Positions 1 to 63,026 of a DNA stretch of 64,000 nt are shown here, piece after piece. The notes beneath the pieces were generated by a model, which worked only from the letters and a program-made list of their open reading frames with translations, did not search any database and was not told the origin of the DNA. The number at the start of each line of letters is the position of its first letter. The stretch's first letter is position 1. Made by a program: the position numbers and the translations under genes. The stretch is from the NCBI RefSeq assembly GCF_050320075.1, contig NZ_CP190018.1. One strand, given 5' to 3'. Origin of the DNA: Escherichia coli. Its GTDB lineage: Bacteria; Pseudomonadota; Gammaproteobacteria; Enterobacterales; Enterobacteriaceae.

Positions 1-575
1 GAATTGATTTTAGAACTCGCAGGATTCGCGCTATTACTGGCCTTGTGTGATGTTGTATTGTTCCCTTCGCCCGCTCCAGAATCTCCCCAGGTGGAGAAGA
101 CTAAAAAAGTCTTCTCTGTCAGCAACTTAAACAGTTACCTATTTAATTTGCTTAGGAGTTCTACCATTGTGATCCGCCCTTAGTAACTGTCACGTTAAGT
201 TACACGGTGAGATGACAGTATAACCTAACGTTGGCGGCAGTTGCACCTCTCACACCGCGATAGCACAACGTGAAGATAAAGCCCATCCTGGCATTGTAAT
301 GTCATCGACAGACTGAACACACGCATTTAAGCCCGATGTGCGGCCTTGTGGCTGCGTAAACAGGTTTATGGTGATATTGGTCCTTGCAAACCATATGCAA
401 GCTCTATCAGCGTTTCAGCCACGCTCCCAACGGGTACACGGTTATCCTGATAAGGTGTGATCTTTCTGACAATCTGATGAAGTCGCTACGCTCCCGCTTG
501 TTGCTGTATCACCAACGGGGCTTTATGGTTTCTATTGTCTATAATAATCTCACAATTCCCCTGCATGAGGTTGAT

Positions 576-782
576 ATGACTGTTAGCTACAAGATTACTT
601 ATGAGCATAGAGACGGTGATCAAATTAGAATGGAAGAGGTTTTATTCCATTCAGAGCATGAACCAACAAAAGATGAAATTCATGATGCAGTAAGAAAAGA
701 TACTGTGAGATTTAATTCTCCATCTAATGGAGTAACGGCTGTTTCAGGGTTTAAAGTGATTTCGGTTGTCCCTGTTCCATGA
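576..782 (+). CDS. Hypothetical small protein (68 aa)
   Basis: ATG at 576 is preceded by GAGG at 567-570. The longer track ORF from 384 starts in compositionally different sequence with no SD. No motif recognised. Confidence 0.4.
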   Translation: MTVSYKITYEHRDGDQIRMEEVLFHSEHEPTKDEIHDAVRKDTVRFNSPSNGVTAVSGFKVISVVPVP

Positions 783-793
783 ATGGTTATAGA

Positions 794-810
794 AGGGGCT
801 GGAAGCCCCT
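794..810. terminator. Hairpin between convergent genes (AGGGGC-tggaa-GCCCCT)
   Basis: Perfect 6 bp stem lying between the stop at 782 and the stop at 816. There is no strong T-run, so it is weak as an intrinsic terminator. Confidence 0.35.
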
Positions 811-815
811 AATTA

Positions 816-1136
816 TTACTTCTTAATATCGCCAGTGCATTGATATTCGATAGTCACAAGTGTTTGCATACAACCAGATGAAGAAGGTTGTGAACATTGA
901 GAAGTGAATCCACCAAAAGGCTCGGCTCCTGAATATCCCCAAGCGGCACAACGCGCTTTGGCTGCATTCATGCCTTGTTGTGGATCTACAACAGGGCTTT
1001 CAAACATACCGTAAGAATAACTCATCCTAACTGTGCCGTCTGATTTGCTTCCACCAGTTGGAACGAGTTGTTTTTTTGTTGCACATCCAGAAATAATCAA
1101 TGTTGAAGCAAGTAACAGCATTAAACTTTTGCGCAT
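816..1136 (-). CDS. Lipoprotein, possibly YecR-like
   Basis: Signal peptide plus lipobox LIISGC near the N-terminus. Four further Cys in the mature part. The GGSKSDGTV / WGY / FGG pattern resembles my recollection of the YecR family. Confidence 0.75.
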   Translation of the reverse strand: MRKSLMLLLASTLIISGCATKKQLVPTGGSKSDGTVRMSYSYGMFESPVVDPQQGMNAAKARCAAWGYSGAEPFGGFTSQCSQPSSSGCMQTLVTIEYQCTGDIKK

Positions 1137-1280
1137 GTAAATAATCCCAAGAGATAATGGTTATGTATTGATTTAAAGCGTTTTTAGATTAATGCATTAA
1201 CTTAGCAAAATTAAGTCTTTTCTGATTGTTTGCAGAGTAAAAATGAGTTGCTTTCGAAATTATTTCGGATGTTTATTGTA

Positions 1281-1448
1281 TTACGGTTTTTCAAACCGTC
1301 TAACTATTGTCGCTATTGAATGGGCAATAATAGCAAGAGGATTCATTTCGTCATTGGAGGCAACAAAAAGTCGGTAACTAATAGCCACAACGAATGCAGC
1401 AATAACGAGAAAGCGGATAGTGCTAAGATGTTTTGAAGATAAATGCAT
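1281..1448 (-). CDS. Small hydrophobic protein (55 aa, MHLSSKHLSTIRFLVIAAFVVAISYRLF...), candidate membrane peptide
   Basis: Below the track cutoff; translated by hand. SD AGGGGG sits 4 nt upstream of the ATG and can pair with CCCCCT in the 5' UTR. One predicted TM segment. Confidence 0.35.
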   Translation of the reverse strand: MHLSSKHLSTIRFLVIAAFVVAISYRLFVASNDEMNPLAIIAHSIATIVRRFEKP

Positions 1449-1524
1449 AACGCCCCCTAAATGAATGTGAGGGGGATTAAATCATGCAAATTTGTTATGT
1501 GCAATACTGGTAATTTATCCTAAT

Positions 1525-1571
1525 AGTCTACTATTCACCTCAATCTACGTCAACCAATATTTGATGTAGAT
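1525..1571 (-). promoter_or_regulatory. Sigma70-like promoter (TTGACG-17-TAGACT on the minus strand) overlapped by a 29 bp palindrome
   Basis: Minus-strand -35 is at 1548-1553 and -10 at 1525-1530. ATCTACGTCAA-N7-TTGATGTAGAT spans 1543-1571 with one mismatch per 11 bp arm. Confidence 0.4.
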
Positions 1572-1788
1572 TTAATTTTCTTTTAAAAACAATATGTTGC
1601 AATTTGTTGGATTTTTGGGTTAGGTTGTTTTTTGAACGTTTCCATCAAGTGTAAAGATACGTTTAGCCTTCATAGTGAGTTCAGTTACTGTCTTTTTATC
1701 TGAAATCGGCGCAAACGTGATCATCGCTTAACGAGAAGATCAGCGCCGTCAGGTCCACGCGGCGACAACTCTGAAATATCAGGAGGCA

Positions 1789-2346
1789 TTACGCTTCCTG
1801 CTCTTTCTTGATACGTTGCACCGTCTGTGTGCTGACACTGAAATCTTTTGCTACGCTCCGAATTGATCCACCATTCGCGAGAGCGGCAGCAATTCCTGCT
1901 CGATCAATTGCTTTTCCATTACCACGTTTTGCTATACGTCCAGCGGCCTTAGCTGCGGCGATCCCTTCACGTTGACGCTCAAGCATCATTTCACGTTCCA
2001 TTTGTGCCACTGCTGCAAGCACTGTGAGCATCATATTCCCTGCGGGAGAGTTCTTCCCTGTCTTAAAGTCTTCTTTATGGAAATGCACAGACACGCCGCG
2101 CTCTGTTAATTGCTCAACCGTTGCCAGTAGGTCGGCTGTATTACGGCAAAGTCGATCAATGCTGTGAACATGCAAAACATCACCTTCCCGCACATAGTTC
2201 ATCATTGCCTCAAACTGTGGGCGCTGGGTATTTTTGCCTGACGCTTTATCTTCAAAGACTTTATCAAGAGTTACTCCAGCTAATTGACGGTCTGTGTTTT
2301 GTTGGACAGTCGATACCCTAATGTATCCAATATTAGCCATTTTCAT
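1789..2346 (-). CDS. Serine recombinase (resolvase/invertase family) with C-terminal HTH
   Basis: N-terminal IGYIRVSTxxQ catalytic-serine motif, DRLCR motif and C-terminal HTH (IRSVAKDFSVSTQTVQRI). The second ATG at 2340 has better SD spacing. Confidence 0.9.
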   Translation of the reverse strand: MKMANIGYIRVSTVQQNTDRQLAGVTLDKVFEDKASGKNTQRPQFEAMMNYVREGDVLHVHSIDRLCRNTADLLATVEQLTERGVSVHFHKEDFKTGKNSPAGNMMLTVLAAVAQMEREMMLERQREGIAAAKAAGRIAKRGNGKAIDRAGIAAALANGGSIRSVAKDFSVSTQTVQRIKKEQEA

Positions 2347-2365
2347 TTTCCTTCTGTGTTGATTT

Positions 2366-2472
2366 GTGTGTAGTGATTATTGATCGTGTTGATTAGGTGT
2401 GTAAAGGACTTTTTTCACTACGAAATTCGAAGGTTTTTAGTGTGGTGATTTAGCCTGCTTTATCACTACACG
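2366..2472. promoter_or_regulatory. Recombinase upstream control region with inverted GTGTAGTGAT / ATCACTACAC arms and further CACTAC-like half sites. Possible res or operator site.
   Basis: 10 bp perfect inverted repeat at 2368-2377 and 2462-2471. Related motifs TTCACTAC and TAGTGTGGTGA lie in between. Confidence 0.3.
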
Positions 2473-3260
2473 TCTTGCATGAGAATCATGTAGTTACATT
2501 TTGGTAAAATTAGCAAGCTATTAAATAGTGTGTTTATTTTGAAAAAATAATTTTTTGTTGCATTAAAGGAAACTTGTTCAATAAATGATAGAACGTTTAT
2601 TGAGCAACAATTTTGCAGTGATGCGCTATATGCCGCATTACATAAGGCTTTGCTGATGATAATGTAAAAGTGAAGAAAGCTAACATTGCTCTTTTAAGCT
2701 ACTTTTCATTGAATTTTTAGTATGGAATTACATAGGGATAAACTATGAATATTCTATGATTTACACGAGATATTCTTGCTGTTTAATTCCGGCTTTGGAG
2801 ATCAGGCATTCGCAAGAATACGCTAACGCGTTGCCTGAAAAGCCATTGCACATAATAGAGGTGAGCGTATAGCGAACTATCAATGTGATCATTGCACGAA
2901 TGATAATGAGTGGATATAGATTCTATATATCGTTAGATTGTAGTTTGATAGTTAATGTGTAATGTAGATTGTATGAGCGTATAGCGAATGTTAGTTAGAT
3001 CAACAACAAACTAACCTTTAAATCTCTTTTATCTTCTCATAGATATGGCTATGCGTAGCAACCGAAGGTTAGCCAATCATCTCTATGCAGCCGTAAGGCT
3101 GTTTTGCATGTAATAGTTGTTTGTTGTTGTTAGACAGTTACCAATTTATAGATCAGAGATAGATGTGAGCGTTGAGCGATACACTAATCATAACAACATC
3201 TTCTTACTTTTTAGTTAGTTGTTAGTAGGTTATTGTTATGCGCGCTATTAGCGCATGTAT

Positions 3261-3371
3261 AAAGGTATCATTTTTATCTAAAGGGCTTTAGACATTTTTG
3301 ATACCTTTTTCATCTCTAAAAAAGTGTAATTTTTATCTAAAGGGGCTTTAGACATTTTTTACACCTTTTTC
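3261..3371. repeat. Two adjacent near-palindromes of about 48 bp, arranged as a 59 bp direct repeat. Each is centred on TCTAAAG-GG(G)-CTTTAGA.
   Basis: Palindrome cores at 3277-3292 and 3336-3352. Outer arms are AAAGGTATC/GATACCTTT and AAAGTGTAA/TTACACCTTT. Extra TCTAAAG half sites occur near 3411 and 3488. Confidence 0.7.
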
Positions 3372-3515
3372 TGTGCAAGACACTTACCAGTGTGCACAAT
3401 ACTTATGCTTTTCTAAAGCCGGGAATTTTTAAGTTTGATTGATCAATTGTTAACTTTAAAAGTTACTTTTAACAATCACTTAGACGATCTAAAGCCGCAA
3501 TTAACATAATATAAG

Positions 3516-3545
3516 TTGACATGCAAGCACTTTTTACCGTATAGT
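3516..3545 (+). promoter_or_regulatory. Near-consensus sigma70 promoter (TTGACA-18-TATAGT)
   Basis: Hexamers read directly at 3516-3521 and 3540-3545. AT-rich sequence lies upstream. Confidence 0.55.
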
Positions 3546-3551
3546 GCGGGT

Positions 3552-3605
3552 TTCCTACCTACCCAGGAAATGAGTTCCTACCTACCCAGGAAATGAGTTC
3601 CTACA
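3552..3605 (+). repeat. Tandem 23 bp repeat, about 2.3 copies, each unit a hairpin or operator (TTCCT-N8-AGGAA)
   Basis: TTCCTACCTACCCAGGAAATGAG at 3552-3574 is repeated exactly at 3575-3597, with a partial third copy at 3598-3605. The repeat starts at the predicted +1 of the 3516 promoter. Confidence 0.9.
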
Positions 3606-4556
3606 ATACTATAATTAAACTACAATTAAACTATCTTTTATAAATTCTTTTATCTTTTAAAGAATAATTATAGGGATACCCGTTAGGGAGTCTTCGACTA
3701 TCCCTTAATCTATTGGCATTCGCCAGAACCTTGCACAAGTTAGACTGATGCTTGTCATAACAGATAGTTTTTGTTTTTTGTTAGTAGTTAGCTGATCTAT
3801 GTTCGCTTTCCGCTCACAACGAATATGTAATCTACTATGTGCAAATAGCCTACGGCTTGCGTATGGCTAATAGTCTTGCGCTGTGCGCAGAACGATAATT
3901 AACTAACTACCATCTAACGATTGAAATTTACTTGTGCAATAACCTGAGCATAAGCGAATGGTTGTTAGTGTCTATGCGCTGTGCGCTTCAATAGTTCCAT
4001 TGATGAGGCTTACGCCAATCTAACGATCATCAATCTATTTAAGAGAAAATCTATTGTGCAATACTCTGACGAGTGCAATAACCTTGTGTGCTACGCGTTA
4101 GCGATGTTAGCACATAGACACAGACAACAACCAACAACAAACAAAAAAGAAAGAATGGTTTTAGTAGTTGAAGGTTAAATAAGTTTCTACCGCTTAAATC
4201 AAGCCGTAGGCGAGCTAAACGTATATAAGGTAGGGAAACACTTAGCGGTAATAGATTAGCTCGTTATAGAGCTTCTGAGGAGCTTTACAGGTATTTTATA
4301 AGATGTCTGAAATCAGAGTTTATCTATCCACCATCTTTCCATCATCTGATAAATCAAAAATAAGCCCCTTAAATAAGCCTCTGACGAGATAAACAACCTC
4401 TACATAAGGGAATGTATTGTTTTTATCAAAACCCCCGTCAGAGTGCGATTGAGAGCGTTTTAGACAACAGGGAAGAATTGTACCAGAGTAGGCAGCACAA
4501 AAAGCTAAGAAAAATTATAAGAAATTGAAAATGATCAAGTTTTTTATAAAAGAGGG

Positions 4557-4585
4557 TTGACAAAGCCGCCGTTATGTAGTATTGT
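4557..4585 (+). promoter_or_regulatory. Sigma70 promoter of the early operon (TTGACA-17-TATTGT) with an A/T-rich UP-like region
   Basis: Hexamers at 4557-4562 and 4580-4585. The first gene with a strong SD follows about 110 nt later. Confidence 0.6.
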
Positions 4586-4701
4586 AAGTAGGGAGGGGAG
4601 AAACATCTCTCTCCATCTAAATAATCAAATCACAGAACACTGCACTTTGAGCCGTCAGGCTGCAAGGTGTGTTTTTCTTTTATCTAAATAAGGAGTTTTT
4701 T

Positions 4702-4884
4702 ATGAAATGGTATACACCGGAACACGTCGTAGAGGCATTTAAAAAAGGTGAGCTAACACGACATCAAGTAAGGATGAACAGGAACACAGCGCGGCGCTGT
4801 GGTTATCCAGAGCGTGAAAAATGCTTTGACGATGCACTAAAAATTATTGATGAACTGCGTAAGGCAGAAGCAGAGAAAGAATAA
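4702..4884 (+). CDS. Hypothetical protein (60 aa)
   Basis: ATG at 4702 is preceded by AAGGAG. The track ORF start at 4669 is an upstream alternative codon without an SD. Confidence 0.6.
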   Translation: MKWYTPEHVVEAFKKGELTRHQVRMNRNTARRCGYPEREKCFDDALKIIDELRKAEAEKE

Positions 4885-4907
4885 TAACAGGAGAAGGAGA
4901 AAACCAA

Positions 4908-5084
4908 ATGAATATTAATTTTGATTCTGCAACTTATAACGCGTTGTTAAATCGTGCAAAGGCAGAAGGGAAATCAATTCCAAAACTTGTTAATGAATTA
5001 CTAATTACAGTCCTTACAAAGGAGGAACTAAATGAACCAAAACACCAAAACAATTGCCGAAGCAAAAGCGCAATGCCTCAATAA
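4908..5084 (+). CDS. Ribbon-helix-helix (CopG/Arc-like) DNA-binding protein (58 aa)
   Basis: Hand-translated: MNINFDSATYNALLNRAKAEGKSIPKLVNELL..., a beta-strand/helix/helix pattern. AGGAGAAGGAG lies upstream. The 3' end overlaps the next gene. Confidence 0.5.
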   Translation: MNINFDSATYNALLNRAKAEGKSIPKLVNELLITVLTKEELNEPKHQNNCRSKSAMPQ

Positions 5085-5697
5085 GAAAGATAGTAAACAA
5101 ACATATGTAGTAGTTGAACAATGGCTGAAGATGTTTAAAAAGTGGTTCTCACCGTCAGGTAAGGAATACACCGCGACACTTCCAGCCGTTGAAATCTACA
5201 GTTACGTAGCTGGGTTCAATGAACAAGGGCAAGAATGTTACGCCAATCAAAAAACATTAGCTAATATTGGAATGGTTAGTGATCGTCAGGTGCGTAATAT
5301 TATAAATATGTTTATTGATATGGGTGTTCTTTCTGTAGAGGCACGGGACGGGCAAACATCACTCTATAAAGCATTACCCTTTACAGATGCACACATCACA
5401 CCACCGGAAGACGTAAAAACCTCTGTAAACGTAGAACAGCCTGCACCTGAAACACAGGAACCGTTAGAAGCGACACACTCTATTGAGCAGGAAACACAGG
5501 CAGAAATCACGGAACAATCTGATCTTTTTACATGGCTTATTTCCATAGACAGCCAAAAGCCTATGCAAGAAGAAACAGAAAATTTTATAAAACGTGCACT
5601 GACCTCGAAGAGGATAATTCTTGAAGATGATGCTTTTAATGCACTGATGATAGCCCTGAGAAAAGAAAGTGAAATCTATGACTCAATACCATTTTAA
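5032..5697 (+). CDS. Winged-helix protein resembling RepA_N/DnaD-type replication initiators, with an acidic C-terminal half
   Basis: Strong SD AAGGAGG. The segment LPAVEIYSYVAGF...ECYANQKTLANIGMVSDRQVRNIINMFIDMGVLSVEARDGQTSLY fits the initiator wHTH pattern as I recall it. Confidence 0.7.
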   Translation: MNQNTKTIAEAKAQCLNKKDSKQTYVVVEQWLKMFKKWFSPSGKEYTATLPAVEIYSYVAGFNEQGQECYANQKTLANIGMVSDRQVRNIINMFIDMGVLSVEARDGQTSLYKALPFTDAHITPPEDVKTSVNVEQPAPETQEPLEATHSIEQETQAEITEQSDLFTWLISIDSQKPMQEETENFIKRALTSKRIILEDDAFNALMIALRKESEIYDSIPF

Positions 5698-5709
5698 GGA
5701 GAATAAAAA

Positions 5710-5967
5710 ATGAAATACAACCTGACATTAAACAAACGAACATTCGAAATTACAGAAAGCGGCTACACACTGGCAAAACAGCTTGCTGATAGCAATTATG
5801 AGCTACCCGCGATTATCAGCTTTCAGGAGTTACCTCATAGTAAAGAACACACACAGCACTGGTTAAATCACCTGAGCCATTTTGGGGTAATTAAGTATGA
5901 GGCTGTGAATAGTCAGACGTTCCGTTTGCTTGAGATAAGCCCTTTCGAATTGTGGGTGGCGCTGTGA
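5710..5967 (+). CDS. Hypothetical protein (85 aa), possibly winged-helix
   Basis: ORF with SD, lying in the operon. Confidence 0.65.
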   Translation: MKYNLTLNKRTFEITESGYTLAKQLADSNYELPAIISFQELPHSKEHTQHWLNHLSHFGVIKYEAVNSQTFRLLEISPFELWVAL

Positions 5968-6170
5968 CCATATTCGATAGCGAATTTTCACAAGAAACCT
6001 TTCTGCAATATTTACGGGAAAGAACGGGAATGATTCTGTTTGATTCTGAGTTTTCCGGTGTGGTAGGTGAGCAATTTTTATATGCTCTTCTCGATAGCCT
6101 AAGTAAACAAGGATTATTGCAGTATACCAAAACTCATATGAAAGCATTCAGAATCGACTCTGTAGCTTAA
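5964..6170 (+). CDS. Hypothetical protein (about 68 aa) with an internal tandem (I/L)FDSEFS repeat
   Basis: GTG at 5964 overlaps the upstream stop as GTGA, suggesting translational coupling. The track ORF begins at 5952. Confidence 0.55.
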   Translation: MTIFDSEFSQETFLQYLRERTGMILFDSEFSGVVGEQFLYALLDSLSKQGLLQYTKTHMKAFRIDSVA

Positions 6171-6206
6171 AACAAACAACTATCAAACATCTTGAAGGGT
6201 GAAACA

Positions 6207-6347
6207 ATGGAAAGCTTAATATTTTTCTTAGTATTTATGATCGCTTCCTTTTTTAACACTGCAACAAGAAAAACAAAACGAAGGGGAAGCAATGAGCAAG
6301 AAAAAAGGCAAGAAAAACGTAATAACAACTATTGGCGAAGCATGTGA
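6207..6347 (+). CDS. Possible small membrane peptide (46 aa, MESLIFFLVFMIASFF... with a basic tail)
   Basis: Hand-translated. Weak SD AAGGG. Overlaps the next gene out of frame. Confidence 0.2.
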   Translation: MESLIFFLVFMIASFFNTATRKTKRRGSNEQEKRQEKRNNNYWRSM

Positions 6348-6672
6348 TCAGTATGCGTTAAACAATCCTCGCAAATATAATTATGAGCATGATGCACAAC
6401 CAGGCGAGGAATTGATCTTTATACTTGAAGAACCAAGCCCAGAATTAACAGACGAAGAATTATCACTCATTCAAAGTATGGACGGTGTTTACTTTAATCC
6501 GCGCCCACGCAAAACAACGGTTATAGATTCCAGTCTTCTGAAAAGATGGCAGTGTTTGGGTTTTCAGGATATGCACCACTTTAGGGGGTATATGGCTCTT
6601 AACAGTCTGCAATATGCAGGGGTGAGAGAAACCGAATTACTTCTGCTTGATAAAATAAAAATCGACGATTAA
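6292..6672 (+). CDS. Hypothetical protein (126 aa), basic N-terminus
   Basis: ORF with SD (AAGGGGA). No motif recognised. Confidence 0.7.
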   Translation: MSKKKGKKNVITTIGEACDQYALNNPRKYNYEHDAQPGEELIFILEEPSPELTDEELSLIQSMDGVYFNPRPRKTTVIDSSLLKRWQCLGFQDMHHFRGYMALNSLQYAGVRETELLLLDKIKIDD

Positions 6673-6713
6673 CAGCGTTTGCTGAATATAACCCTTAACA
6701 AAAGGAAAATAAA

Positions 6714-6935
6714 ATGATTAACAAAGCAATTTTAGAGACAACCACTTTTCACGATCTTAAACTTCTTTCTGAATGCTTCATAAGCCTGATTGAACGTGCA
6801 CAGGAAGAAAACGATCTCGGTTTACTCGATGATATTATAGACAACATTGCAACTTATAAAATCCCGCTCACTATTGCTATGAAGAAAGCTCGTGAAGCAC
6901 AACAACAATTAGAACAATCAGAGGAAGTGGCATAA
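6714..6935 (+). CDS. Hypothetical acidic helical protein (73 aa)
   Basis: ORF with SD. The stop overlaps the next start as TAATG. Confidence 0.7.
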   Translation: MINKAILETTTFHDLKLLSECFISLIERAQEENDLGLLDDIIDNIATYKIPLTIAMKKAREAQQQLEQSEEVA

Positions 6936-7243
6936 TGAGCGAAGTACACAACGTAACTATTGAAATGATGGATCTGGTTATTGATTTACAGAAAGCAGTA
7001 AACGCGGCTCTGACTTTTCCAAGCGAGCTAACCATCACACAGGCGGTTATTAATCTGGAATCGACGCGGGAAGCACTGCAACTACTTATTGCAGCGTGCG
7101 AAGAGAGCGAAGGTGCACAGATTGAAGCTGATGACCTTTCTAATCTGATCATCGTCATTCATGACACCACTGAAATCATGAAAGAAGCGGTAGCAGATCT
7201 GCAACCCCTCATTAATGAATTAATCGATAAGGCTAACAACTAA
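6935..7243 (+). CDS. Hypothetical strongly acidic helical protein (102 aa)
   Basis: By my count about 19 D/E against 4 K/R. TAATG overlaps at both ends. Confidence 0.7.
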   Translation: MSEVHNVTIEMMDLVIDLQKAVNAALTFPSELTITQAVINLESTREALQLLIAACEESEGAQIEADDLSNLIIVIHDTTEIMKEAVADLQPLINELIDKANN

Positions 7244-7452
7244 TGTCAAAAACTAAACGTGTGCGCCTTCTGGCGCTCACAGAAGAAGGGAAAGCGGGTA
7301 ATTGTTTCACAGTAGGTAAAGTGTATACCGGCTTACTCGACACTTACACCCGCCTGATGCACGTAACCGATGATAACGGTAACGATCAAACAATCGTTTT
7401 AGATGGTAATTGCGTATTTGGTGAGTGGGAACTGACAACCGAAAAAAGTTGA
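7243..7452 (+). CDS. Hypothetical protein (69 aa)
   Basis: Translationally coupled ORF and the last gene of the early operon. Confidence 0.7.
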   Translation: MSKTKRVRLLALTEEGKAGNCFTVGKVYTGLLDTYTRLMHVTDDNGNDQTIVLDGNCVFGEWELTTEKS

Positions 7453-7471
7453 AAATAATTGCATTTACCTA

Positions 7472-7500
7472 TTGACTTTTACTAACAGAAATGTTAGAAT
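7472..7500 (+). promoter_or_regulatory. Sigma70-like promoter (TTGACT-17-TAGAAT)
   Basis: Hexamers at 7472-7477 and 7495-7500, 20 nt after the early-operon stop. Confidence 0.5.
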
Positions 7501-7506
7501 AATAAA

Positions 7507-7749
7507 TGTTGGGTTTGGAATCGAAAATAGGTGTTAGCTGGCGTTAATCCTTCTCCCGATTCTAATCCTACACGAAAGCGGGGTAGACCTCAAGGGGTCG
7601 CGCCCTATCTAACCTATCCCGCTTTCCCTTTACAGTGATTTTTTAGAAATTGTTTCCCTCGTTAATAGTTTCATTTTATTTTCCTTATTGCTTTATCAAA
7701 ATTGTGTCTTAAGAATGCAGGGGCTACGGATTTGGCCCCTCATCTTTTT
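7507..7749 (+). ncRNA. Candidate structured leader or ncRNA 1
   Basis: No ORF longer than 20 codons. A 13 bp stem (7574-7586 with 7614-7626) encloses the AGGG-gtcgcg-CCCT hairpin. Ends at the terminator-like hairpin at 7719-7749. Confidence 0.3.
7719..7749 (+). terminator. Intrinsic terminator-like hairpin (AGGGGC...GCCCCT followed by T5)
   Basis: 6 bp GC stem at 7719-7724 and 7735-7740, with a T-run at 7745-7749. Confidence 0.5.
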
Positions 7750-7869
7750 AACCAACTGCGAAGCATGAAACACTTTCTAAAAACACTGTTTACAGTGTCT
7801 ATAAACCCCGTATAAACAAATAACGGTGTATATCTGTTTCTTGACAACAGTTTTCTACTAAGCTTAAAG

Positions 7870-8290
7870 CTGAATATGTTTTTGTTTGTTGGTGTTTATT
7901 AAGGTGCCAATCTTAGAACGCGAAAGCGTGGATGATCCCCGAAATCATCTCGGCACCGCCTCCTATTAAAATGAGAATCCAAAAGGTTTGAAAGTTAATA
8001 GGTGATTCCTGAAAGTCTGATCGATGCATCCACATTGTGAAAGACAGCGATTAGCCGTCGCACGAATAACAGGTTTATAGATTCCTCTCCAAAGGGGGCG
8101 ACCTCCTAAGCGCCTACTCCCTGTAAGCCTGTTATTCACCCCTCAAGGGTATATAACAATAAGCAATCTTATTCTTATATGTCCTCCTCTTTAAGTTCAT
8201 ATAAACTGCGATTTAGTAACACTCTATAACATCCTTCAAATGTTGTATTCATAAAGCCGGAAGCTTTCCCCTTCCGGTTTTATTTTTATC
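7870..8290 (+). ncRNA. Candidate long structured RNA 2 (about 420 nt). The 5' end is uncertain.
   Basis: A possible promoter is TTGACA at 7841-7846 with a weak -10 TTAAAG. A three-way junction is formed by GGTGCC 7903-7908 with GGCACC 7952-7957, the GNRA hairpin ACGC-GAAA-GCGT at 7918-7929, and GATGAT/ATCATC at 7931-7949. An 8 bp stem pairs 7962-7969 with 7995-8002, and a 10 bp stem pairs 8064-8073 with 8128-8137. A strong terminator sits at 8253-8290. No ORF longer than 20 codons. Confidence 0.4.
8253..8290 (+). terminator. Intrinsic terminator (CCGGAAG-ctttccc-CTTCCGG followed by a T-rich tail)
   Basis: 7 bp GC-rich stem extended by A-U/G-U pairs, then TTTTATTTTTAT. It lies about 40 nt before the first head-module gene. 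Confidence 0.7.
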
Positions 8291-8330
8291 AGCACTAAAC
8301 AAGACTGTTAGGAATAAAGGTAAAGCAATA

Positions 8331-8546
8331 ATGCAAAATCTCATTCTAAAGAATGGTAACGAAGAATTGGTTATCACTGATGAAACATTCAATGCTACGG
8401 CTTATATGCTGGGGATCACTCCCACAGAATTGAAAAAACATTGTGATAAGCTTTTTAAGTCTGCTGATGAACAGAAACCTACTATGCAGGATCTGATTAA
8501 AGCAAAAGCAGAACAAATCAAACAATCCAAAAAAGGAAACTATTAA
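8331..8546 (+). CDS. Hypothetical protein (71 aa), first gene of the head module
   Basis: ORF with SD. No motif recognised. Confidence 0.7.
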   Translation: MQNLILKNGNEELVITDETFNATAYMLGITPTELKKHCDKLFKSADEQKPTMQDLIKAKAEQIKQSKKGNY

Positions 8547-8548
8547 TT

Positions 8549-8920
8549 ATGGCTATTATTAATATGAGCGATCTGTTTCCAGTTCGCAAATCATTTACCG
8601 ATATCGTTTCATATGCAACTGATGAGTTCGGTTGTGTGCAATCTTTTACCGTTGATCTGGCGGTTGATGTTGAATGCGGCGATCTGATTACCAGTGACGG
8701 CGCTGAATATGTAAGCGGCGGCGATGTTCTTGTAGTTGTGTCTGATGCGGTATCCGCTGGCGACGCTAAAACCGTTAACGTGCTGCGTAGCAATGCCGGA
8801 CTGGTTTGCATCAAGTCCGATGCTCTGAATGTTGAAGGCGCTGTGAAAGAAGCTGCTATTGCTGCCCTGGCTGCAAAAGGTTTCCAGATGGCTGGTTTTA
8901 ACACTGTATTCACATCTTAA
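8549..8920 (+). CDS. Head decoration / capsid-cement-like protein (gpD / DUF2190-like)
   Basis: 123 aa, Gly/Ala/Val-rich beta-type protein immediately upstream of the capsid gene. The size, position and G..V......G.....V pattern are typical of decoration proteins. The assignment rests on pattern, not on an alignment. Confidence 0.6.
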   Translation: MAIINMSDLFPVRKSFTDIVSYATDEFGCVQSFTVDLAVDVECGDLITSDGAEYVSGGDVLVVVSDAVSAGDAKTVNVLRSNAGLVCIKSDALNVEGAVKEAAIAALAAKGFQMAGFNTVFTS

Positions 8921-8938
8921 TATAAAGGAATAAAAATA

Positions 8939-9967
8939 ATGATTATTGGTAATGAATCCGTCGATCTGGCTCCGCTGTTTAGTCTGCACGACTCTCGCAA
9001 CTTCCTGTTAACTTCTCTCGACTTTACTGATCCGGTAGGTGTGAGTTCTCATAAAGTGGCTGTTAGCCAACTGGTGGAAACTAACGAATCTCTGTTCAAC
9101 AAAGAAACCTCTCGTTTCTCTTCTGAACATAACGTGACTAAACGTGAACAGGGTAAAGAATTTTTAGTAGAGATCCCCTACTTCCTGCGTGAAGATATGA
9201 TTAAGCCGCAAGACGTGCAAGGCAAACGTAAACCAGGCGCTACCGTTGAAGAAACTCTGACAGATATCTACGCGGAATATGTTGCTAAGCACCACATTGC
9301 TTTCCAGCGTACTAAAGAAAGCGTGCTGGCTGCTTCCCTGTTCTCTGGTCGCACTTACACCCCTAAAACTGATGATGTGCTGATCCAGTGGGGCGATCTG
9401 TTTAGTGTTGTTCCGATGACTGCAACCATCGACGCATCAAGCACCACGCCTTCTATGGTGTTCCAGCAATTCGATCAGATGCATACAGACGTTATTACTA
9501 AAGCACAAAGCCAGGCGGCTGCTGTAGAACGTATCGTTGTATTCTGTAAACCTGCTGCTTTCAACGCTATCCGTTACAGTGCTGGCATGGTTAACGCGTT
9601 CCAGTATGCAAGCCCTACCGATGACGCAAACATCGTTTATAGCGTGCGCTCCCTGCTGCCAGGTGTGACTACCTTCACTATTCCTGGGACTAACATCGAT
9701 ATCGTTAAAGTTACTGATCCGCTGCTGCTGGCTCATATGACTTCTGATGCGGTTGCTGTTCCGAAGTTCGCTAAAGGCTCTAACGTCTATCAGAACATTT
9801 TCAGCGCTCCTTCTTCAACGTTCGACCTGCTGAATTCTGGCGCGGCTGAATATTACAGCTATGCGTTTAGCCCAGCACGTAACGACGCTGTAAACGTAGT
9901 TACTGAGAATAGCCAGATGGTTGTAAACCACGGCGTAGGCTTCACTGTACAGATCACAGTAGCGTAA
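8939..9967 (+). CDS. Major capsid protein, lambda gpE-like family
   Basis: 342 aa, close to the size I recall for gpE (about 341 aa). The IKPQDVQGKRKPG segment resembles the conserved P.D.QG.R..G region of the capsid E family. It follows a decoration-like gene as in lambda D-E. Confidence 0.75.
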   Translation: MIIGNESVDLAPLFSLHDSRNFLLTSLDFTDPVGVSSHKVAVSQLVETNESLFNKETSRFSSEHNVTKREQGKEFLVEIPYFLREDMIKPQDVQGKRKPGATVEETLTDIYAEYVAKHHIAFQRTKESVLAASLFSGRTYTPKTDDVLIQWGDLFSVVPMTATIDASSTTPSMVFQQFDQMHTDVITKAQSQAAAVERIVVFCKPAAFNAIRYSAGMVNAFQYASPTDDANIVYSVRSLLPGVTTFTIPGTNIDIVKVTDPLLLAHMTSDAVAVPKFAKGSNVYQNIFSAPSSTFDLLNSGAAEYYSYAFSPARNDAVNVVTENSQMVVNHGVGFTVQITVA

Positions 9968-10017
9968 TAAAGCGTTAATAGTCGTTTCCTGTGCGACTGG
10001 AAATAAAACAGGCAATA

Positions 10018-10081
10018 AGGGCAAAAGGGATTATTAAACCTGTAGCGCAAATACAGTAAACAATCTCTTTTGCCCTTTTTT
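10018..10081 (+). terminator. Long-stem terminator-like structure after the capsid gene
   Basis: AGGGCAAAAG at 10018-10027 pairs with CTTTTGCCCT at 10067-10076, followed by T5. An inner hairpin lies at 10040-10056. Confidence 0.45.
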
Positions 10082-10120
10082 CGTTTATACCGTCTATTAA
10101 AATATTGTGAGAGAAAAATC

Positions 10121-10312
10121 ATGAGCGAACAAAACAACAATCCAGTTGAGATCCTGAAAGCTGTTTCCACCTTACCGGAAGATATTCTGAATATCTCTCA
10201 AGTGTGTAAGTTTTTAGGGATCTCTAATACTGCTGTACGTCAAAGAATCTTCACTACTGGCTGCTCAGCTATGGAAGCAGTGCAATACTACGTAACAAAA
10301 CAAAACAAATAA
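10121..10312 (+). CDS. Small HTH DNA-binding protein (63 aa). Could be an excisionase/AlpA-like or small-terminase-like recognition protein.
   Basis: The ISQVCKFLGISNTAVRQRI helix-turn-helix. The track ORF start at 10070 lies inside the terminator, so the ATG at 10121 is preferred. Confidence 0.6.
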   Translation: MSEQNNNPVEILKAVSTLPEDILNISQVCKFLGISNTAVRQRIFTTGCSAMEAVQYYVTKQNK

Positions 10313-10330
10313 AAGGTAAAGGAAAATATT

Positions 10331-12172
10331 ATGGATTTAAACATCTCAACCTTAACAAACAAGGTTGTATTTAAAGTTGATTTTGCATCATTACAGAAAG
10401 CAAGGGACGCAGGGAAGAAATTTCAGAAAGAAATGGAAAACCTAACCAATCCAACATTGAAAGGGAAGAAGGCTAAACGAGCTATAGACGAGGCTCATGA
10501 TCTGGTAAAGGCTCGTAAAGCTGCACAGGCTAAAACTGATGCCAAAGCGTCAGACAAGCAAGCTCAAACCGATAAGAAGAACGCTGATAAGGTGGCAAAG
10601 GCAGAAGCTAAAGCGAAGGCTAAAGCCGCTATAGCTGCCGATAAACAGATCCGCGCTAAAGCGACAATAGCAGAGAAAGCAGAGATTAAGCGCCAGCAAG
10701 CTTTCAGACAGCTTGAAGGGATTAAGAAAGGGCGTATGGGCGACGGTATGGACTCCGCCCAATACTACAAAACGTTGCAATACATCAAAGCACAAACGGC
10801 AGCGTATGAGAAAGGCGCTATTAGTCAGGCTAAGATGAATCACCTGATCCGTGATCGTATCACGTTAGAACGCCGTGCGGCTGCTGTAAAAGCTCGCCAG
10901 GTGGCGGCTGATGGCGGTAAATATCCACATATGGCTAAACAGCTTAAAGGCGGTCATATAGGCGGTGGTGTAGGTGCAATGGTGGGCGGTGCCGCTCTCA
11001 CTGCTGCCACTCTCGGCGGTGCTGCGATATTCAATACCGTAACCGATCAGGCAAGCAAGATCACAGACACTAACCGCAAGGCAAAGGCTGTCAACGTAAA
11101 CACTAACGCCCTGTTAGCACTTAATCAGTACGGCTTAGAACACGGTGTCGATAGTTCCGTAGACCAACGTCAAGACAACCTTAAAGACGTTCAAGAGCGT
11201 TTAGGTGAATCCGTAGGGAATACCAAATGGGACGCTAAGAAAGGTCGCTGGGCTGGCGGTAATGGTGCCGTCGATAACATCCTTAATAAATATGGTTGGA
11301 GTCCTGAACAGATTAAAGGTTTCCAGACTGATCCATTAGGTTTCCTGGGCGCTGTAGTGAAAGAAGGAGAACGCCGTGGACTCTCTGATCAGGAGCAGGG
11401 TCACATCCTTGAAGACCTTGGAAATGATTTACAATATTTCCGTGGTGCTTTCAGTCGTAACGGTGAAGAGCTAAATAAAACCATCGTTAAGATGCAAAAA
11501 GCCAATGCCACCTATGCGCAAGCGGATCTTGACGCTGCTGAACGTCTGCAAGCTGTACAGGCTAATATGAATATGGCCTGGGAAGGTAGTAAGAAAGCTA
11601 TCATGACGGGATTCGGTGAAGAGTTCGACGCTCAGGCTGGTGAAGAGTGGGCGCAAATGTTGAAAGATCTCAATCCTCTGTTTAAAGAACTTGGAAGCTC
11701 AACGGCTGAAATGATGAGCGCCTTTGCTGGTGCTGTATCGTGGCTTACTGCTGCATACCAGAATATAAATCCAGAGAACAAACATGAAAACCTTGATTCG
11801 TCCGGTATGTATTATAAGGATTCGTTTGTAGGCGGCATGGTTGATTGGGGTCGTAGTGCTTTAGGCTTATCGCCTATCCCTGGCACGGAAGACAAGCCAA
11901 CGACTGGCGGAACTGCAATTCAGAACTATTCAAGCCCGTCCGATAACGTGCAATCCCTGAAAGAGAACGTTAGCCGTGATCTGAACACTACCCCATCTAT
12001 GACGTATGCGCCAAGCATTGTCGTAAACGTGCCAGAAAGTAAGGTTGATGTGAATATCGCTCCTGATGGTAGTCAGCTTGGATCATACCTCGATTACAAA
12101 GTGGGAAGTATCCAACAAGATTTTGAACGTAGTTTCACGTTGGCGGCTCTGTCTGGGCAAGCACCAAGTTAA
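10331..12172 (+). CDS. Large structural protein, tape-measure-like (Lys/Ala coiled coil plus glycine-zipper hydrophobic segment)
   Basis: 613 aa. The N-terminal KAEAKAKAKAA-type repeats and GGHIGGGVGAMVGGAALTAATLGGAAIF are typical of tape-measure or DNA-pilot proteins. Confidence 0.6.
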   Translation: MDLNISTLTNKVVFKVDFASLQKARDAGKKFQKEMENLTNPTLKGKKAKRAIDEAHDLVKARKAAQAKTDAKASDKQAQTDKKNADKVAKAEAKAKAKAAIAADKQIRAKATIAEKAEIKRQQAFRQLEGIKKGRMGDGMDSAQYYKTLQYIKAQTAAYEKGAISQAKMNHLIRDRITLERRAAAVKARQVAADGGKYPHMAKQLKGGHIGGGVGAMVGGAALTAATLGGAAIFNTVTDQASKITDTNRKAKAVNVNTNALLALNQYGLEHGVDSSVDQRQDNLKDVQERLGESVGNTKWDAKKGRWAGGNGAVDNILNKYGWSPEQIKGFQTDPLGFLGAVVKEGERRGLSDQEQGHILEDLGNDLQYFRGAFSRNGEELNKTIVKMQKANATYAQADLDAAERLQAVQANMNMAWEGSKKAIMTGFGEEFDAQAGEEWAQMLKDLNPLFKELGSSTAEMMSAFAGAVSWLTAAYQNINPENKHENLDSSGMYYKDSFVGGMVDWGRSALGLSPIPGTEDKPTTGGTAIQNYSSPSDNVQSLKENVSRDLNTTPSMTYAPSIVVNVPESKVDVNIAPDGSQLGSYLDYKVGSIQQDFERSFTLAALSGQAPS

Positions 12173-12230
12173 TGATAAAGAGAATGTTTAATCACCATTT
12201 AAAACACTCTTATAAGGAATTAAGCATATA

Positions 12231-12257
12231 AGAGGCTCCCATTACAAGGAAGCCTCT
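12231..12257. terminator. Hairpin between convergent genes (AGAGGCT...AGCCTCT)
   Basis: 7 bp stem followed by TTATT. It sits between the stop at 12172 and the integrase stop at 12280. Confidence 0.45.
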
Positions 12258-12279
12258 TTATTGCGCCTATGGCGTTGTT

Positions 12280-13455
12280 TTAAGCCTTAAAATCAATATT
12301 TAATTCATATCTTACTAATTCTACATATTCAGCTAATTCTGGAATGCTTGCCCCTTGTGAGTAGGTGCGAAAGGCTTCTGTTTTAGCTCTCTGCTCTGTA
12401 TGTCCGGTAATGGCACCGATCCGCTGTTCAGGCACTCCGGCACGATCAAGACAAGTGATAAACATCCCGCGCAAGCTGTGAAAGCATTGTCTATTTGTAG
12501 CGATTGGCAAGACGCTACGACGTAAACGTGAGAACGCTTGAGAATAGAACGGGCCTTTCTTACCGTCGATTCTTTTTACTTTGTTCGAGTGAGGGAACAA
12601 ATATTCACCATAATTATGATTTAAATATTCATCGACAATAATCGATAGTCTCGAATGTATCGGAACGTGCCTGATCCCTGCTTTAGTCTTACTTTTGCTG
12701 ATATAAAAACAGCGTATTCCTTCCACAGTTACAACCTCTGACTTTTTCAGACTTGCCAGTTCGTCTAATCTGCATCCTGAAAACAAGCCCATTAAAATAA
12801 TATTTCTGATCTCCGGCTCCGCTGCATCAAGTAGCTTTTGCATTTGTTCAGGTGTAAACGGTTGATAACTCTCGATTGTGCGACGTGCTTCGAGATTATG
12901 ACCGTGAAAAGGGTTACTGTCTGGTATTCCGTCATAACGGCGTTTAGCAAATTCATAGAGCGATCCTAAGCATGTAAGCCAGTTTTGACGAGATTGATCG
13001 GCTGCTCCTCGTTGCTTCTGGTCATCTAAGAATACTGTTACAAGCCGTCTGCCTATTTTCTCAATATGAATATCATCTTTCTGAATGCTTTGTAAAAATA
13101 GCTCAACGGCCCTTGCTGATTTCTGTAGTGTTGAGTATGAACGACGCTCTCTGTAGCATTCGGCGTATTCGTCACGTATTAAGCATAGGGAAGGCGATGC
13201 ATAACCGCGTTTTACGGCTCTTTGCGTGTTTTTATTGGCCCTTGCCTCTGAATGTAAGGATTCAATAGCTTGTTGTAACCTCCTTTCGGGGTTATCAGGA
13301 TTATGTTTCCGCTTTAGTTCCTCCCATTCTAATAATAGATGGTTTCTGAATCTTCTCGCCTCATTCAGATCTCGTGTAGATGTGCTTTTTCTCCACAACT
13401 TGTAAGGGTAAAGATGACGTAAGTATTTAGGAACAAAAATCGGTGATGCTGCCAA
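12280..13455 (-). CDS. int: Tyrosine recombinase/integrase, 5'-truncated. The first about 5 codons of the open frame are IS1 end sequence.
   Basis: The C-terminal catalytic motifs HSLRG, GH and RTY are present. The N-terminal arm motif (VPKYL...KSTSTRDLNEARRF) begins abruptly. The ORF start (TTG at 13453-13455) lies inside the IS1 IRL, which begins at 13442. Confidence 0.85.
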   Translation of the reverse strand: MAASPIFVPKYLRHLYPYKLWRKSTSTRDLNEARRFRNHLLLEWEELKRKHNPDNPERRLQQAIESLHSEARANKNTQRAVKRGYASPSLCLIRDEYAECYRERRSYSTLQKSARAVELFLQSIQKDDIHIEKIGRRLVTVFLDDQKQRGAADQSRQNWLTCLGSLYEFAKRRYDGIPDSNPFHGHNLEARRTIESYQPFTPEQMQKLLDAAEPEIRNIILMGLFSGCRLDELASLKKSEVVTVEGIRCFYISKSKTKAGIRHVPIHSRLSIIVDEYLNHNYGEYLFPHSNKVKRIDGKKGPFYSQAFSRLRRSVLPIATNRQCFHSLRGMFITCLDRAGVPEQRIGAITGHTEQRAKTEAFRTYSQGASIPELAEYVELVRYELNIDFKA

Positions 13456-13496
13456 CTTACTGATTTAGTGTATGATGGTGTTTTTGAGGTGCTCCA

Positions 13497-13772
13497 GTGG
13501 CTTCTGTTTCTATCAGCTGTCCCTCCTGTTCAGCTACTGACGGGGTGGTGCGTAACGGCAAAAGCACCGCCGGACATCAGCGCTATCTCTGCTCTCACTG
13601 CCGTAAAACATGGCAACTGCAGTTCACTTACACCGCTTCTCAACCCGGTACGCACCAGAAAATCATTGATATGGCCATGAATGGCGTTGGATGCCGGGCA
13701 ACCGCCCGCATTATGGGCGTTGGCCTCAACACGATTTTCCGCCATTTAAAAAACTCAGGCCGCAGTCGGTAA
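13497..13772 (+). CDS. insA: IS1 InsA
   Basis: 91 aa, [40 protein letters not shown]..., recognised. Confidence 0.95.
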
Positions 13773-14194
13773 CCTCGCGCATACAGCCGGGCAGTGACGT
13801 CATCGTCTGCGCGGAAATGGACGAACAGTGGGGATACGTCGGGGCTAAATCGCGCCAGCGCTGGCTGTTTTACGCGTATGACAGGCTCCGGAAGACGGTT
13901 GTTGCGCACGTATTCGGTGAACGCACTATGGCGACGCTGGGGCGTCTTATGAGCCTGCTGTCACCCTTTGACGTGGTGATATGGATGACGGATGGCTGGC
14001 CGCTGTATGAATCCCGCCTGAAGGGAAAGCTGCACGTAATCAGCAAGCGATATACGCAGCGAATTGAGCGGCATAACCTGAATCTGAGGCAGCACCTGGC
14101 ACGGCTGGGACGGAAGTCGCTGTCGTTCTCAAAATCGGTGGAGCTGCATGACAAAGTCATCGGGCATTATCTGAACATAAAACACTATCAATAA
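13691..14194 (+). CDS. insB: IS1 InsB' frame, expressed as the InsAB' transposase by -1 frameshifting
   Basis: 167 aa frame overlapping insA. The slippery TTAAAAAAC motif lies at 13746-13754. Confidence 0.9.
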
Positions 14195-14478
14195 GTTGGA
14201 GTCATTACCCTTTGGCTATGAATAATTCTGATTTGACGAATCCAGAGGACTTATAGATCACTGTCTCCGGTTTAATAACTTGAATATAATCTAATTCTAA
14301 TATTTTAAACGCCTAATGATTTTTCAACACGGGTGTTATTCTGCTTACGCAAAAATTTTATTTTTAATTATATTTCATTATTATTTCATCAATGTATTCT
14401 TTGGATTTTGCTTATAATAATAATGGAAGGGATGATTATAAATGAATGCGTTATTGCATTTACACTCAGGATGAATAT

Positions 14479-15111
14479 ATGGGAAAGATTAAAATTGTAG
14501 TTTCAGATCAGCAGCCGTTTATGATTGATGGGATAATTGGATTTCTCGGACATTATCCCGATTTATATGAGGTTGTTGGGGGCTATAAAGATCTGAAGAA
14601 AGCTATCGCGGAGTGTAACAAATCTGCAGCCCAAATATTTATTTTAGGAGAATTTGCAGGTGGAATGATGGGGTCCGAACTCATAAAATGGGTTAAATCG
14701 CATAAAATAGATGCTCATATTATTACATTTGTAGCAAAAATGCCGTATATTGATTCAATAAAATTGCTTGAAGCCGGTGCGAAAGGATGCGTATGGAAAA
14801 CCAGTCATCCGGCGAAACTAAATCGCGCTATTGATTCGATTAGTAATGGTTACACTTATTTTGATAGTGTACATATGGATTGTGAAAAAATATCTTCAAG
14901 ATATTCCTCTGATAATCAACTTACAAATCGTGAGTCTGAAATACTACAACTCATAGCTGATGGGAAAACAAACAAAGAAATCGCTAATTTCTTGCAGTTA
15001 AGCAGGAAAACAGTCGAAACTCATAGACTCAATATCATGAAGAAATTAGATGTTCACAGTGGTATCGAGTTGATCAAAACAGCTTTACGTATGGGTGTTT
15101 GCACTATATAA
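14479..15111 (+). CDS. ygeK: LuxR/NarL-type response regulator
   Basis: Receiver-like N-terminus plus a C-terminal LuxR HTH ([22 protein letters not shown]). 210 aa from the ATG at 14479. Confidence 0.85.
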
Positions 15112-40860: not shown

Positions 40861-41045
40861 GTCACGATACCTTGGTTAAAAAATAAACAGCAATTATGTG
40901 CCGAATATTCGTAGTGTAACTTTTTCCACATGCGTTGTTCAATTCTCTGATTTATATTGCTTTTTAGGCTTCCTGTAATCGAGTTGCGCAACACTGCAAC
41001 GGGTTTTCCAAATCTGGTCACTGAAAATAAACAGGATCTTACACC

Positions 41046-62794: not shown

Positions 62795-62840
62795 ATAGGA
62801 GAACAGAAACAAAAAAACACCCGTTAGGGTGTTCAATAAT

Positions 62841-62917
<77 letters not shown>

Positions 62918-62949
62918 TCACCGTACTGCTTTATTTCATCAAATTTGAT

Positions 62950-63026
<77 letters not shown>

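Follow-up and report, generated by a model that had tools for sequence, protein, structure and literature searches.

The island and the repeat in its non-coding gap

We analysed a 64,000-bp stretch of the Escherichia coli chromosome (NCBI RefSeq assembly GCF_050320075.1, contig NZ_CP190018.1; hereafter the window) and focused on a short tandem repeat at 3552 to 3604, a candidate iteron array, and on the promoter-like site directly upstream of it. Both lie in a low-GC island at positions 1 to ~13,500, which adjoins IS1 and the ETT2 region. The island is ~13 kb long and tRNA-integrated. In island order, a serine recombinase gene (1789 to 2346, minus strand) is followed by a ~2.3-kb gap free of open reading frames (ORFs) at 2347 to 4701, which is blank in RefSeq. 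A plus-strand operon then carries g1, g2, rep and small genes, followed by the genes for decoration-like, gpE-type major capsid and 613-aa tape-measure-like proteins (8549 to 8920, 8939 to 9967 and 10331 to 12172, respectively) and by a tyrosine integrase gene. The small genes g1 (4702 to 4884) and g2 (4908 to 5084) precede rep (5032 to 5697), which encodes the putative replication initiator Rep and whose start is overlapped by g2. An operon promoter, TTGACA-17-TATTGT, lies upstream of these three genes at 4557 to 4585 on the plus strand, and an equivalent was found in 19 of the 19 family loci scanned.

Relatives of the island (loci with L numbers below) were located at tRNA-Thr or tRNA-Gly in other E. 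coli genomes and on IMG/VR contigs. All E. coli islands and IMG/VR contigs sharing the capsid gene keep the ~2.3-kb ORF-free gap, but only the blocks corresponding to 2544 to 2766 and 4280 to 4904 are conserved family-wide, and the middle is mosaic. A 401-bp stretch of the gap (3380 to 3780) matched in ~490 of 5,426 complete E. coli genomes, among them members of the O104:H4, O26 and O111 lineages. A scan of genome contigs with the capsid protein returned one locus only, and the spread of the family is described here within Escherichia. Positions 2400 to 4700 had no match among 50,697 phage records in either the near or the distant DNA similarity mode.

The tandem consists of 2.3 copies of TTCCTACCTACCCAGGAAATGAG with 100% matches (Tandem Repeats Finder [TRF] score of 106). 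It was also recovered by a second repeat search and is far beyond chance. It starts at 3552, six bases past the -10 hexamer of a sigma-70-like promoter match on the plus strand (P3516, 3516 to 3545), which reads TTGACA at 3516 to 3521, an 18-nt spacer and TATAGT at 3540 to 3545. P3516 agrees with the consensus at 11 of 12 positions and is the best promoter-like site within positions 1 to 9000. Unlike the tandem, the promoter match does not stand out from chance. When the 2.35-kb gap was shuffled by dinucleotides, 9.4% of the shuffles had a match of at least 11 of 12, and the 14-kb island gave a mean of 0.43 such matches per dinucleotide shuffle. The first-pass annotation had described this promoter leading into perfect tandem copies, with no ORF for more than 1 kb beyond, and the promoter match and the tandem were confirmed. 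The first annotated or conserved gene downstream begins at 4702, and the only ORFs before it are unconserved ones of 65 aa (3981 to 4178) and 44 aa (4557 to 4691).

Directly past the tandem lies an AT-rich stretch (3605 to 3672), the putative DNA-unwinding element. It contains the 11-mer ACTACAATTAA in 2.4 copies at 3608 to 3633 (TRF), and the GC content of 16.7% at 3600 to 3659 (83% AT) is the regional minimum. From there to the operon promoter, most of the DNA is a hairpin-rich, ORF-free spacer (3660 to 4300). The spacer hairpins at 3674 to 3706 and 4088 to 4118 are fully compensated relative to L028 and L029, which carry the same spacer type (W), and whole hairpin blocks have been gained or lost between strains. 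The spacer may act as RNA, as a single-strand DNA signal or as protein sites. Because of inverted repeats picked up in the repeat search, the region 2800 to 3250 was considered as an inverted copy of 3700 to 4150; this was rejected, since local BLAST gave only short matches in both orientations with E values of 0.001 or higher; the likeness is one of shared sequence style. A (TTTTTTG)n microsatellite at 3768 to 3782 has ~2 copies in the window, ~3 in L018 and L019, and ~6 in L020.

Covariation of repeat arrays with the DNA-binding domain of Rep

Three features would be expected of an iteron origin, namely at least two direct repeats of ~17 to 30 bp in helical phasing, an adjacent AT-rich stretch and a cognate initiator. 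The window has 2.3 repeats of 23 bp at 100% identity, and the adjacent AT-rich stretch is present there and in all Rep-carrying relatives. In every fetched relative that encodes this kind of Rep, the same position holds 2 to 5 tandem units of 22 to 24 bp with an internal dyad, directly followed by AT-rich DNA. The sole relative with a helicase replicon instead of Rep (L004) has no such array. The units fall into five clear types, A (TTCCTACCTACCYAGGAAATGAG), B (TAGGTCACTGTGAACTAGGGGG), C (GATACCCCTATCAAAACT), D (ACAGAATTCTGTTAGACACCCCC) and E (TGTAACG-N3-5-GTTACA), and the variants A' and B' bring the number to seven, each with its own type of Rep N-domain.

The window array is of type A. A comparison of A-type arrays showed that AGGAA-N5-TTCCT is the element conserved over all copies. 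The window holds two complete 15-bp dyad sites of this register, AGGAAATGAGTTCCT, at 3565 to 3579 and 3588 to 3602, and a right half-site, TTCCT, at 3552 to 3556. The first-pass annotation had taken TTCCT-N8-AGGAA as the dyad of the unit. This motif is present within each 23-bp unit, but its N8 differs in sequence and length among relatives, and this choice of dyad was not upheld. The window sites are phased at 23 bp, or about two helical turns, and the homologous arrays of L002, L003, L010 and L014 have four sites spaced 35, 23 and 22 to 23 bp. CAATACTATAATTA starts directly after every A-type array, and the AT-rich stretch of L014 has a 13-mer in five copies.

The four-site arrays are the ancestral form, and in the window the third site had its left half replaced where the array now meets the neighbouring module. 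Near-identical sister islands carry 1.3 copies (UTME-10), 2.3 copies (52 genomes at ≥99% identity) or 3.3 copies (strain 20.1). This variation among sister strains indicates that the copies are perfectly identical because the array has expanded and contracted recently, and the perfect copies in the window are best read as a recent expansion of a truncated array. The recent slippage suspected in the first-pass annotation is thus borne out.

Window Rep is ~220 aa long, with an N-terminal winged-helix domain of A type (aa ~30 to 125) and a C-terminal part of the W backbone type ending in IPF. Alignment of the family showed that Rep is modular. The N-terminal ~120 aa occur in five types with 18 to 47% mutual identity, and the C-terminal part occurs in two. 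A-type arrays go with A-type N-domains in the window, L002, L014, L018, L019 and L020; B with B in L003, L008 to L013 and L016; C with C in L005; D with D in L015, L017 and L022; and E with E in L007 and L021. At every locus examined, the array adjoining the last AT-rich stretch agreed with the N-domain type of Rep. For the two variants, the Rep proteins were picked from a protein search before the upstream DNA was looked at. The A' N-domain is 63% identical to A, and the DNA upstream has four GGCAATGATTGCC-like sites spaced exactly 23 bp apart, in which the dyad arms are altered symmetrically relative to A (GGAAATGAGTTCC). The B' N-domain is 87% identical to B, with 4.3 copies of GATGACCGGGGGGGTCGGTCAC upstream.

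The markers lying between array and Rep, namely the spacer type (W or M, ~600 to 900 bp) and the g1 and g2 types, assort independently, as does the type of the Rep C-domain. Both backbones are found with each of types A, D and E, and L014 Rep is 90% identical to window Rep in the N-terminal half only. A linkage between array and Rep that outlasts the recombination of everything between them is the mark of a DNA site paired with the protein that binds it. The one-to-one covariation of seven array types with seven N-domain types therefore points to Rep as the probable cognate initiator of these arrays.

Some islands stack two to three array-plus-AT modules in the order C, A, B (L003 5930 to 6250, L010 1950 to 2300 and L011 5270 to 5540). 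The resident Rep is matched only by the last of them, and most family members hold single vestigial copies of other types upstream.

All Rep types matched phage replication-initiator PHROGs (E values of 1e-6 to 1e-10) and HTH_36, the window Rep scoring 22.3 bits against the Pfam HTH_36 model with its cut-off of 25. The AlphaFold model of Rep had a predicted local distance difference test (pLDDT) score of ~90 over aa 31 to 120. Its top Foldseek matches were the N-domains of RepA_N initiators (4pql, 4ro3, 4pt7 and 5kbj), among which 4ro3 is the RepA N-domain of PLE, a satellite of Vibrio cholerae (PMC7145576). A sequence search of the Protein Data Bank with Rep gave no match.

Taken together, 3552 to 3604 is very probably an iteron array, and 3552 to 3672 the core of the replication origin of the island. 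A Rep dimer would bind the sites through its N-domain, oligomerise on the array and open the AT-rich stretch. The separately exchangeable C-domain would recruit a helicase, as in lambda O, the Rep proteins of iteron plasmids and PLE RepA.

Several observations weigh against the origin reading. The support for it is entirely comparative, and many of the loci are closely related, so that independent covariation events are fewer than loci, amounting to roughly seven types, three of them on two backbones. The Foldseek matches of Rep were weak (E values of ~0.01 to 0.08 and TM-scores of 0.3 to 0.5) and stood amid generic winged helix-turn-helix regulators. Among curated families, neither RepA_N nor Phage_rep_O scored above threshold, and NCBIfam gave no match. 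The ORF-free gap has no DnaA boxes. Most characterised origins have more complete sites than the two left in the window or the one left in L020. L003 and L010 have an A array without an A-type Rep, and arrays can therefore persist as orphans. In addition, g2 type 1 also co-occurs with the A array, for the A type alone, which is explained by the overlap of g2 with the start of rep.

The promoter-like site and alternative explanations

P3516 belongs to a left mosaic module (2766 to 3551) that is present only in window-type and L004-type islands. The module is hairpin-rich and ends with palindromic units, an AT-rich stretch and the promoter. It joins the repeat module directly upstream of the repeats, at ~3546 to 3551, and homology with relatives and other genomes breaks between 3549 and 3561. 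L004 has P3516 in common with the window, but in place of an array the promoter is followed there by another replicon, made up of g1, g2 and a DEAD-box helicase, together with a second promoter. The A-type arrays of L002, L003, L010 and L014, in turn, have no such upstream promoter. In L019, L020 and at least 10 other genomes, a 147-bp deletion (window 3393 to 3539) has removed the second AT-rich stretch, the -35 hexamer and the spacer, whereas TATAGT and the iterons are kept. The Rep gene is intact in L019 and is interrupted (shortened) by an IS2 insertion in L020. The carriers of P3516 among E. coli genomes are all 95 to 100% identical, and the conservation is thus uninformative on promoter function. 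These comparisons indicate that P3516 was placed beside the array by recombination with a neighbouring module and is not a constituent part of the origin. It may well be a real promoter. Transcription from it could then enter the origin, in the manner of pR at lambda ori, or Rep bound to the array could block it.

The left module has further features of its own. Two 60-bp units at 3258 to 3370, each a 23+23-bp palindrome (AAAGGTATCATTTTTATCTAAAG GG CTTTAGACATTTTTGATACCTTT), are followed by the second AT-rich stretch at 3420 to 3515; L004, L019 and L020 have one copy of the unit, and the window has two. Possibly the units are an operator of the helicase-type replicon, or an orphaned origin of it; a search of IMG/VR for this replicon gave no match. 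Positions 2766 to 3260 fold better on the plus strand (-112.6 versus -87.4 kcal/mol, with 22 versus 7 G-U pairs). Unlike the spacer right of the origin, this asymmetry hints at a plus-strand RNA there. Family members lacking the serine recombinase have a strong rightward promoter-like site, TTGACT-16-TATAAT (11 of 12 positions), at the left edge of the gap and directed towards the arrays (L003 5190, L007 4865, L012 4866, L015 917 and L017 4925).

If P3516 is active, the repeats, lying at +1 to +53, could be operators for a repressor of the rightward transcript, either g2 or an autorepressing Rep. The position of the repeats six nucleotides past the -10 hexamer of the best sigma-70 match in 9 kb suits such a role, as does the association of g2 type 1 with A arrays, and Rep bound there would be expected to block transcription sterically. 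However, promoter and repeats belong to separable modules: other A arrays have no such promoter, and L019 and L020 have kept the repeats after losing the -35 hexamer and spacer. A match of this quality has a chance expectation of ~9% in the gap, the operon has its own conserved promoter 1 kb downstream, and g2 types do not track the iteron type in the family, following none of the array types B to E. We consider the operator explanation unlikely. Of the protein operator proposed in the first-pass annotation, the reading of the repeats as protein-binding sites is retained, and the protein is more probably a replication initiator than a repressor.

The same annotation had also suggested a promoter-driven hairpin RNA, such as a non-coding primer or regulatory RNA. 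Such a transcript would start at ~3552 with two identical 5' stem-loops, continue as ~740 nt of structured RNA and end near 4267 to 4287, where a weak terminator-like site is found. The absence of a conserved gene for ~1.1 kb and the hairpin-rich downstream region, with its compensated hairpins and a fold z-score of -4.4 for the plus strand of 3660 to 4300, fit this idea. Yet the minus strand of the spacer folds as well or better (z = -5.2), without a G-U asymmetry between strands, and the repeat RNA itself (3552 to 3610) folds no better than shuffles (z = -0.96). The conserved dyad register, GGAA-N5-TTCC, is not that of the proposed stem-loops. A scan of positions 1 to 15000 against Rfam gave no match at E ≤ 1, and a consensus structure across the W, M and L027 spacer types was weak (-10 kcal/mol) and poorly aligned. 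Promoter and repeats sit on separate mosaic modules, and most family members lack the promoter. We regard an RNA role for the repeats as very improbable, and this part of the earlier proposal was set aside.

A neutral origin of the tandem, as a slippage product or as the scar of site-specific recombination at an att-like or recombinase crossover site without a function of its own, would accommodate the 1.3, 2.3 and 3.3 copies in near-identical islands, the clustering of homology breakpoints at 3549 to 3614 and the presence of a serine recombinase gene 1.2 kb away. But distant relatives retain homologous arrays whose copies have diverged while spacing and dyad were kept. Moreover, the array type tracks Rep rather than the recombinase, whose sequence hardly varies and which several array-bearing loci lack, and matching DNA-binding domains have been captured by phages (see below). 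This explanation likewise deserves very little weight. A serine-invertase crossover site of the hix or gix kind was also considered for the repeats and for the 60-bp palindromes and rejected, as the recombinase is invariant while the arrays vary and is absent in several loci; judged by eye, the half-site geometry of hix and gix does not fit either element.

Satellite-like features and phage-encoded Rep domains

The island has an integrase, its own replication module and an incomplete set of virion genes related to those of a candidate helper, as expected of a satellite. The decoration-like, capsid and tape-measure-like proteins have their closest phage relatives in the Stephanstirmvirinae. Those of the tape-measure-like protein are almost only Stephanstirmvirinae of ~145 to 152 kb (27 to 32% identity, E values down to 1e-43), and the full-length phage relatives of the capsid protein are also capsids of this group. 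No portal or terminase was recognised among the island proteins. The involvement of a helper phage, guessed at in the first-pass annotation, fits this context.

The DNA-binding domains of Rep also occur in phages. The virulent Stephanstirmvirinae muut, inny, BI-EHEC and Mt1B1_P17, with genomes of ~146 to 151 kb, encode proteins with close copies of the island Rep N-domain (records MN850573 81258 to 82256, equal to L023 4635 to 5633; MN850601; OL505078; and MT496970). In muut_154 (P0019, 332 aa), aa 1 to 133 form a C-type domain 89% identical to L005 Rep, and aa 123 to 214 form an A-type domain 91% identical to L014 Rep and 75% identical to window Rep. The C-terminal ~120 aa are a candidate GIY-YIG-like nuclease domain. 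P0022, from a contig of ~150 kb, combines a D-type domain (aa 1 to 128, 88% identical to D-type Rep) with an A-type domain and has the same C-terminus as muut_154; its match to Pfam Phage_rep_O was below threshold. The C-terminal domain of the two proteins scored 22.5 to 25.0 bits against MUG113 (cut-off of 22.3), 15 to 17.7 bits against T5orf172 (below the cut-off of 20) and E = 2e-19 against phrog_681, annotated as endonuclease. We take MUG113 to be in the same GIY-YIG clan as T5orf172. The tblastn relatives of this domain are annotated as homing or GIY-YIG endonucleases. The single-sequence AlphaFold model of muut_154 had a pLDDT of 36 and was unusable.

The vibriophage-encoded precedent is Odn of ICP1, which combines a PLE RepA-like domain with a T5orf172 nuclease and cuts PLE iterons (PMC8263062). 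P0019 and P0022 both have the satellite-initiator-derived DNA-binding domain expected of an Odn-type protein, and their architecture is that of Odn, so that they look like its E. coli counterpart. This analogy suggests that some virulent coliphages attack the origins of such islands. With up to 2 mismatches allowed, the muut genome (146,307 bp) itself showed none of the A, B, D and E motifs; a real C motif was likewise absent, and no other DNA similarity was found in muut. In the literature searched, nothing linked Stephanstirmvirinae with satellites or described an E. coli analogue of Odn.

It is about evenly balanced whether the island family is an undescribed PLE-like satellite of virulent Stephanstirmvirinae of ~146 to 151 kb (the phAPEC8/phi92 group), with the origin as an arms-race battleground where phage chimeras cut satellite iterons. 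Nuclease pressure of this kind would account for there being seven or more interchangeable iteron/Rep types, for the stacking of orphan arrays and for arrays that were truncated and re-expanded. The perfect 2.3 copies in the window could then be an escape or repair variant.

The likeness to PLE extends to several features. The PLE origin also lies in a long non-coding region with several repeat families, and its iterons are direct repeats with inverted sub-repeats, semi-palindromic in PLE (PMC7145576, PMC8263062). In both systems, iteron type goes together with the N-terminal DNA-binding domain of the initiator, the C-domain being exchangeable or conserved, and a virulent phage has a protein in which a satellite Rep domain is joined to a domain resembling T5orf172 or GIY-YIG nucleases. 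The PLE RepA N-domain (4ro3) is also among the top structural matches of the island Rep model. The differences are also clear. The island resides in E. coli, its candidate helpers are Stephanstirmvirinae of ~146 to 151 kb, and it shows no detectable sequence homology to PLE proteins. It has at least seven iteron/Rep types, versus two in PLE, and has genes of its own for capsid, decoration-like and tape-measure-like proteins. The predicted coliphage chimeras carry two different Rep domains in tandem that are 88 to 91% identical to island Reps, compared with 42% for Odn.

Other replicons share parts of this arrangement. Lambda ori is likewise an array of about four iterons of ~19 to 23 bp with internal dyad symmetry beside an AT-rich stretch, and the PHROG matches of Rep include weak O-like ones. 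In lambdoid phages, the N-domain of the initiator O sets ori specificity and the C-domain contacts the helicase loader. Transcription from a nearby promoter into the origin activates lambda ori, which would be a possible role for P3516. Unlike lambda, the island has its origin ~1.4 kb upstream of rep and not inside it, window Rep has no Pfam Phage_rep_O match, and no P-like loader was identified in the island. SaPI and PICI elements resemble the island in being integrated satellites that encode an initiator of their own, whose type-specific cognate iterons flank an AT-rich region. SaPI Rep combines helicase and primase, and the SaPI ori lies directly downstream of rep, whereas island Rep is a winged-helix protein of ~220 aa without a helicase domain, and the gene content differs. 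Iteron plasmids such as pSC101, R6K, RK2 and pPS10 have directly repeated Rep sites with ~22-bp phasing and an AT-rich unwinding element, and the Foldseek matches 4pql, 4pt7 and 5kbj are initiators of RepA_N plasmids (pSK41/pTZ2162). In contrast to these plasmids, the island is chromosomally integrated, has no DnaA boxes in the gap and matches no curated Pfam Rep family.

The repeat alone is probably an ordinary iteron origin of known kind that fills a blank in the RefSeq annotation. Its context is an island family that is widespread in E. coli and has features typical of a satellite, here of virulent coliphages of the therapeutic type, and the satellite-versus-phage picture is potentially the novel part. 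If confirmed, it would be a second, independent case of the strategy of ICP1 Odn against PLE, in a tractable model organism. It would then also bear on host range in phage therapy and provide orthogonal Rep-iteron pairs from nature.

Further features were noted within and around the island. A second ORF-free gap of ~0.9 kb (7453 to 8330), also unannotated in RefSeq, has terminator-like hairpins at 7719 to 7740 and 8251 to 8283. Upstream of the window (L001 1 to 16000), a P4/PICI-like element lies in tandem, with Icd-like, DUF927 primase-like, SSB, ProQ/FinO and large hypothetical genes, and the locus is thus a composite island. Seven of the 18 DnaA-box-like matches in the window, including two perfect TTATCCACA, cluster at 40491 to 41373, which by map position we take to be probably the DARS2 locus. 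Three tandem tRNA-Met(CAT) genes in a 109-bp repeat at 62837 to 63138 form an ordinary E. coli array of the metZWV type.

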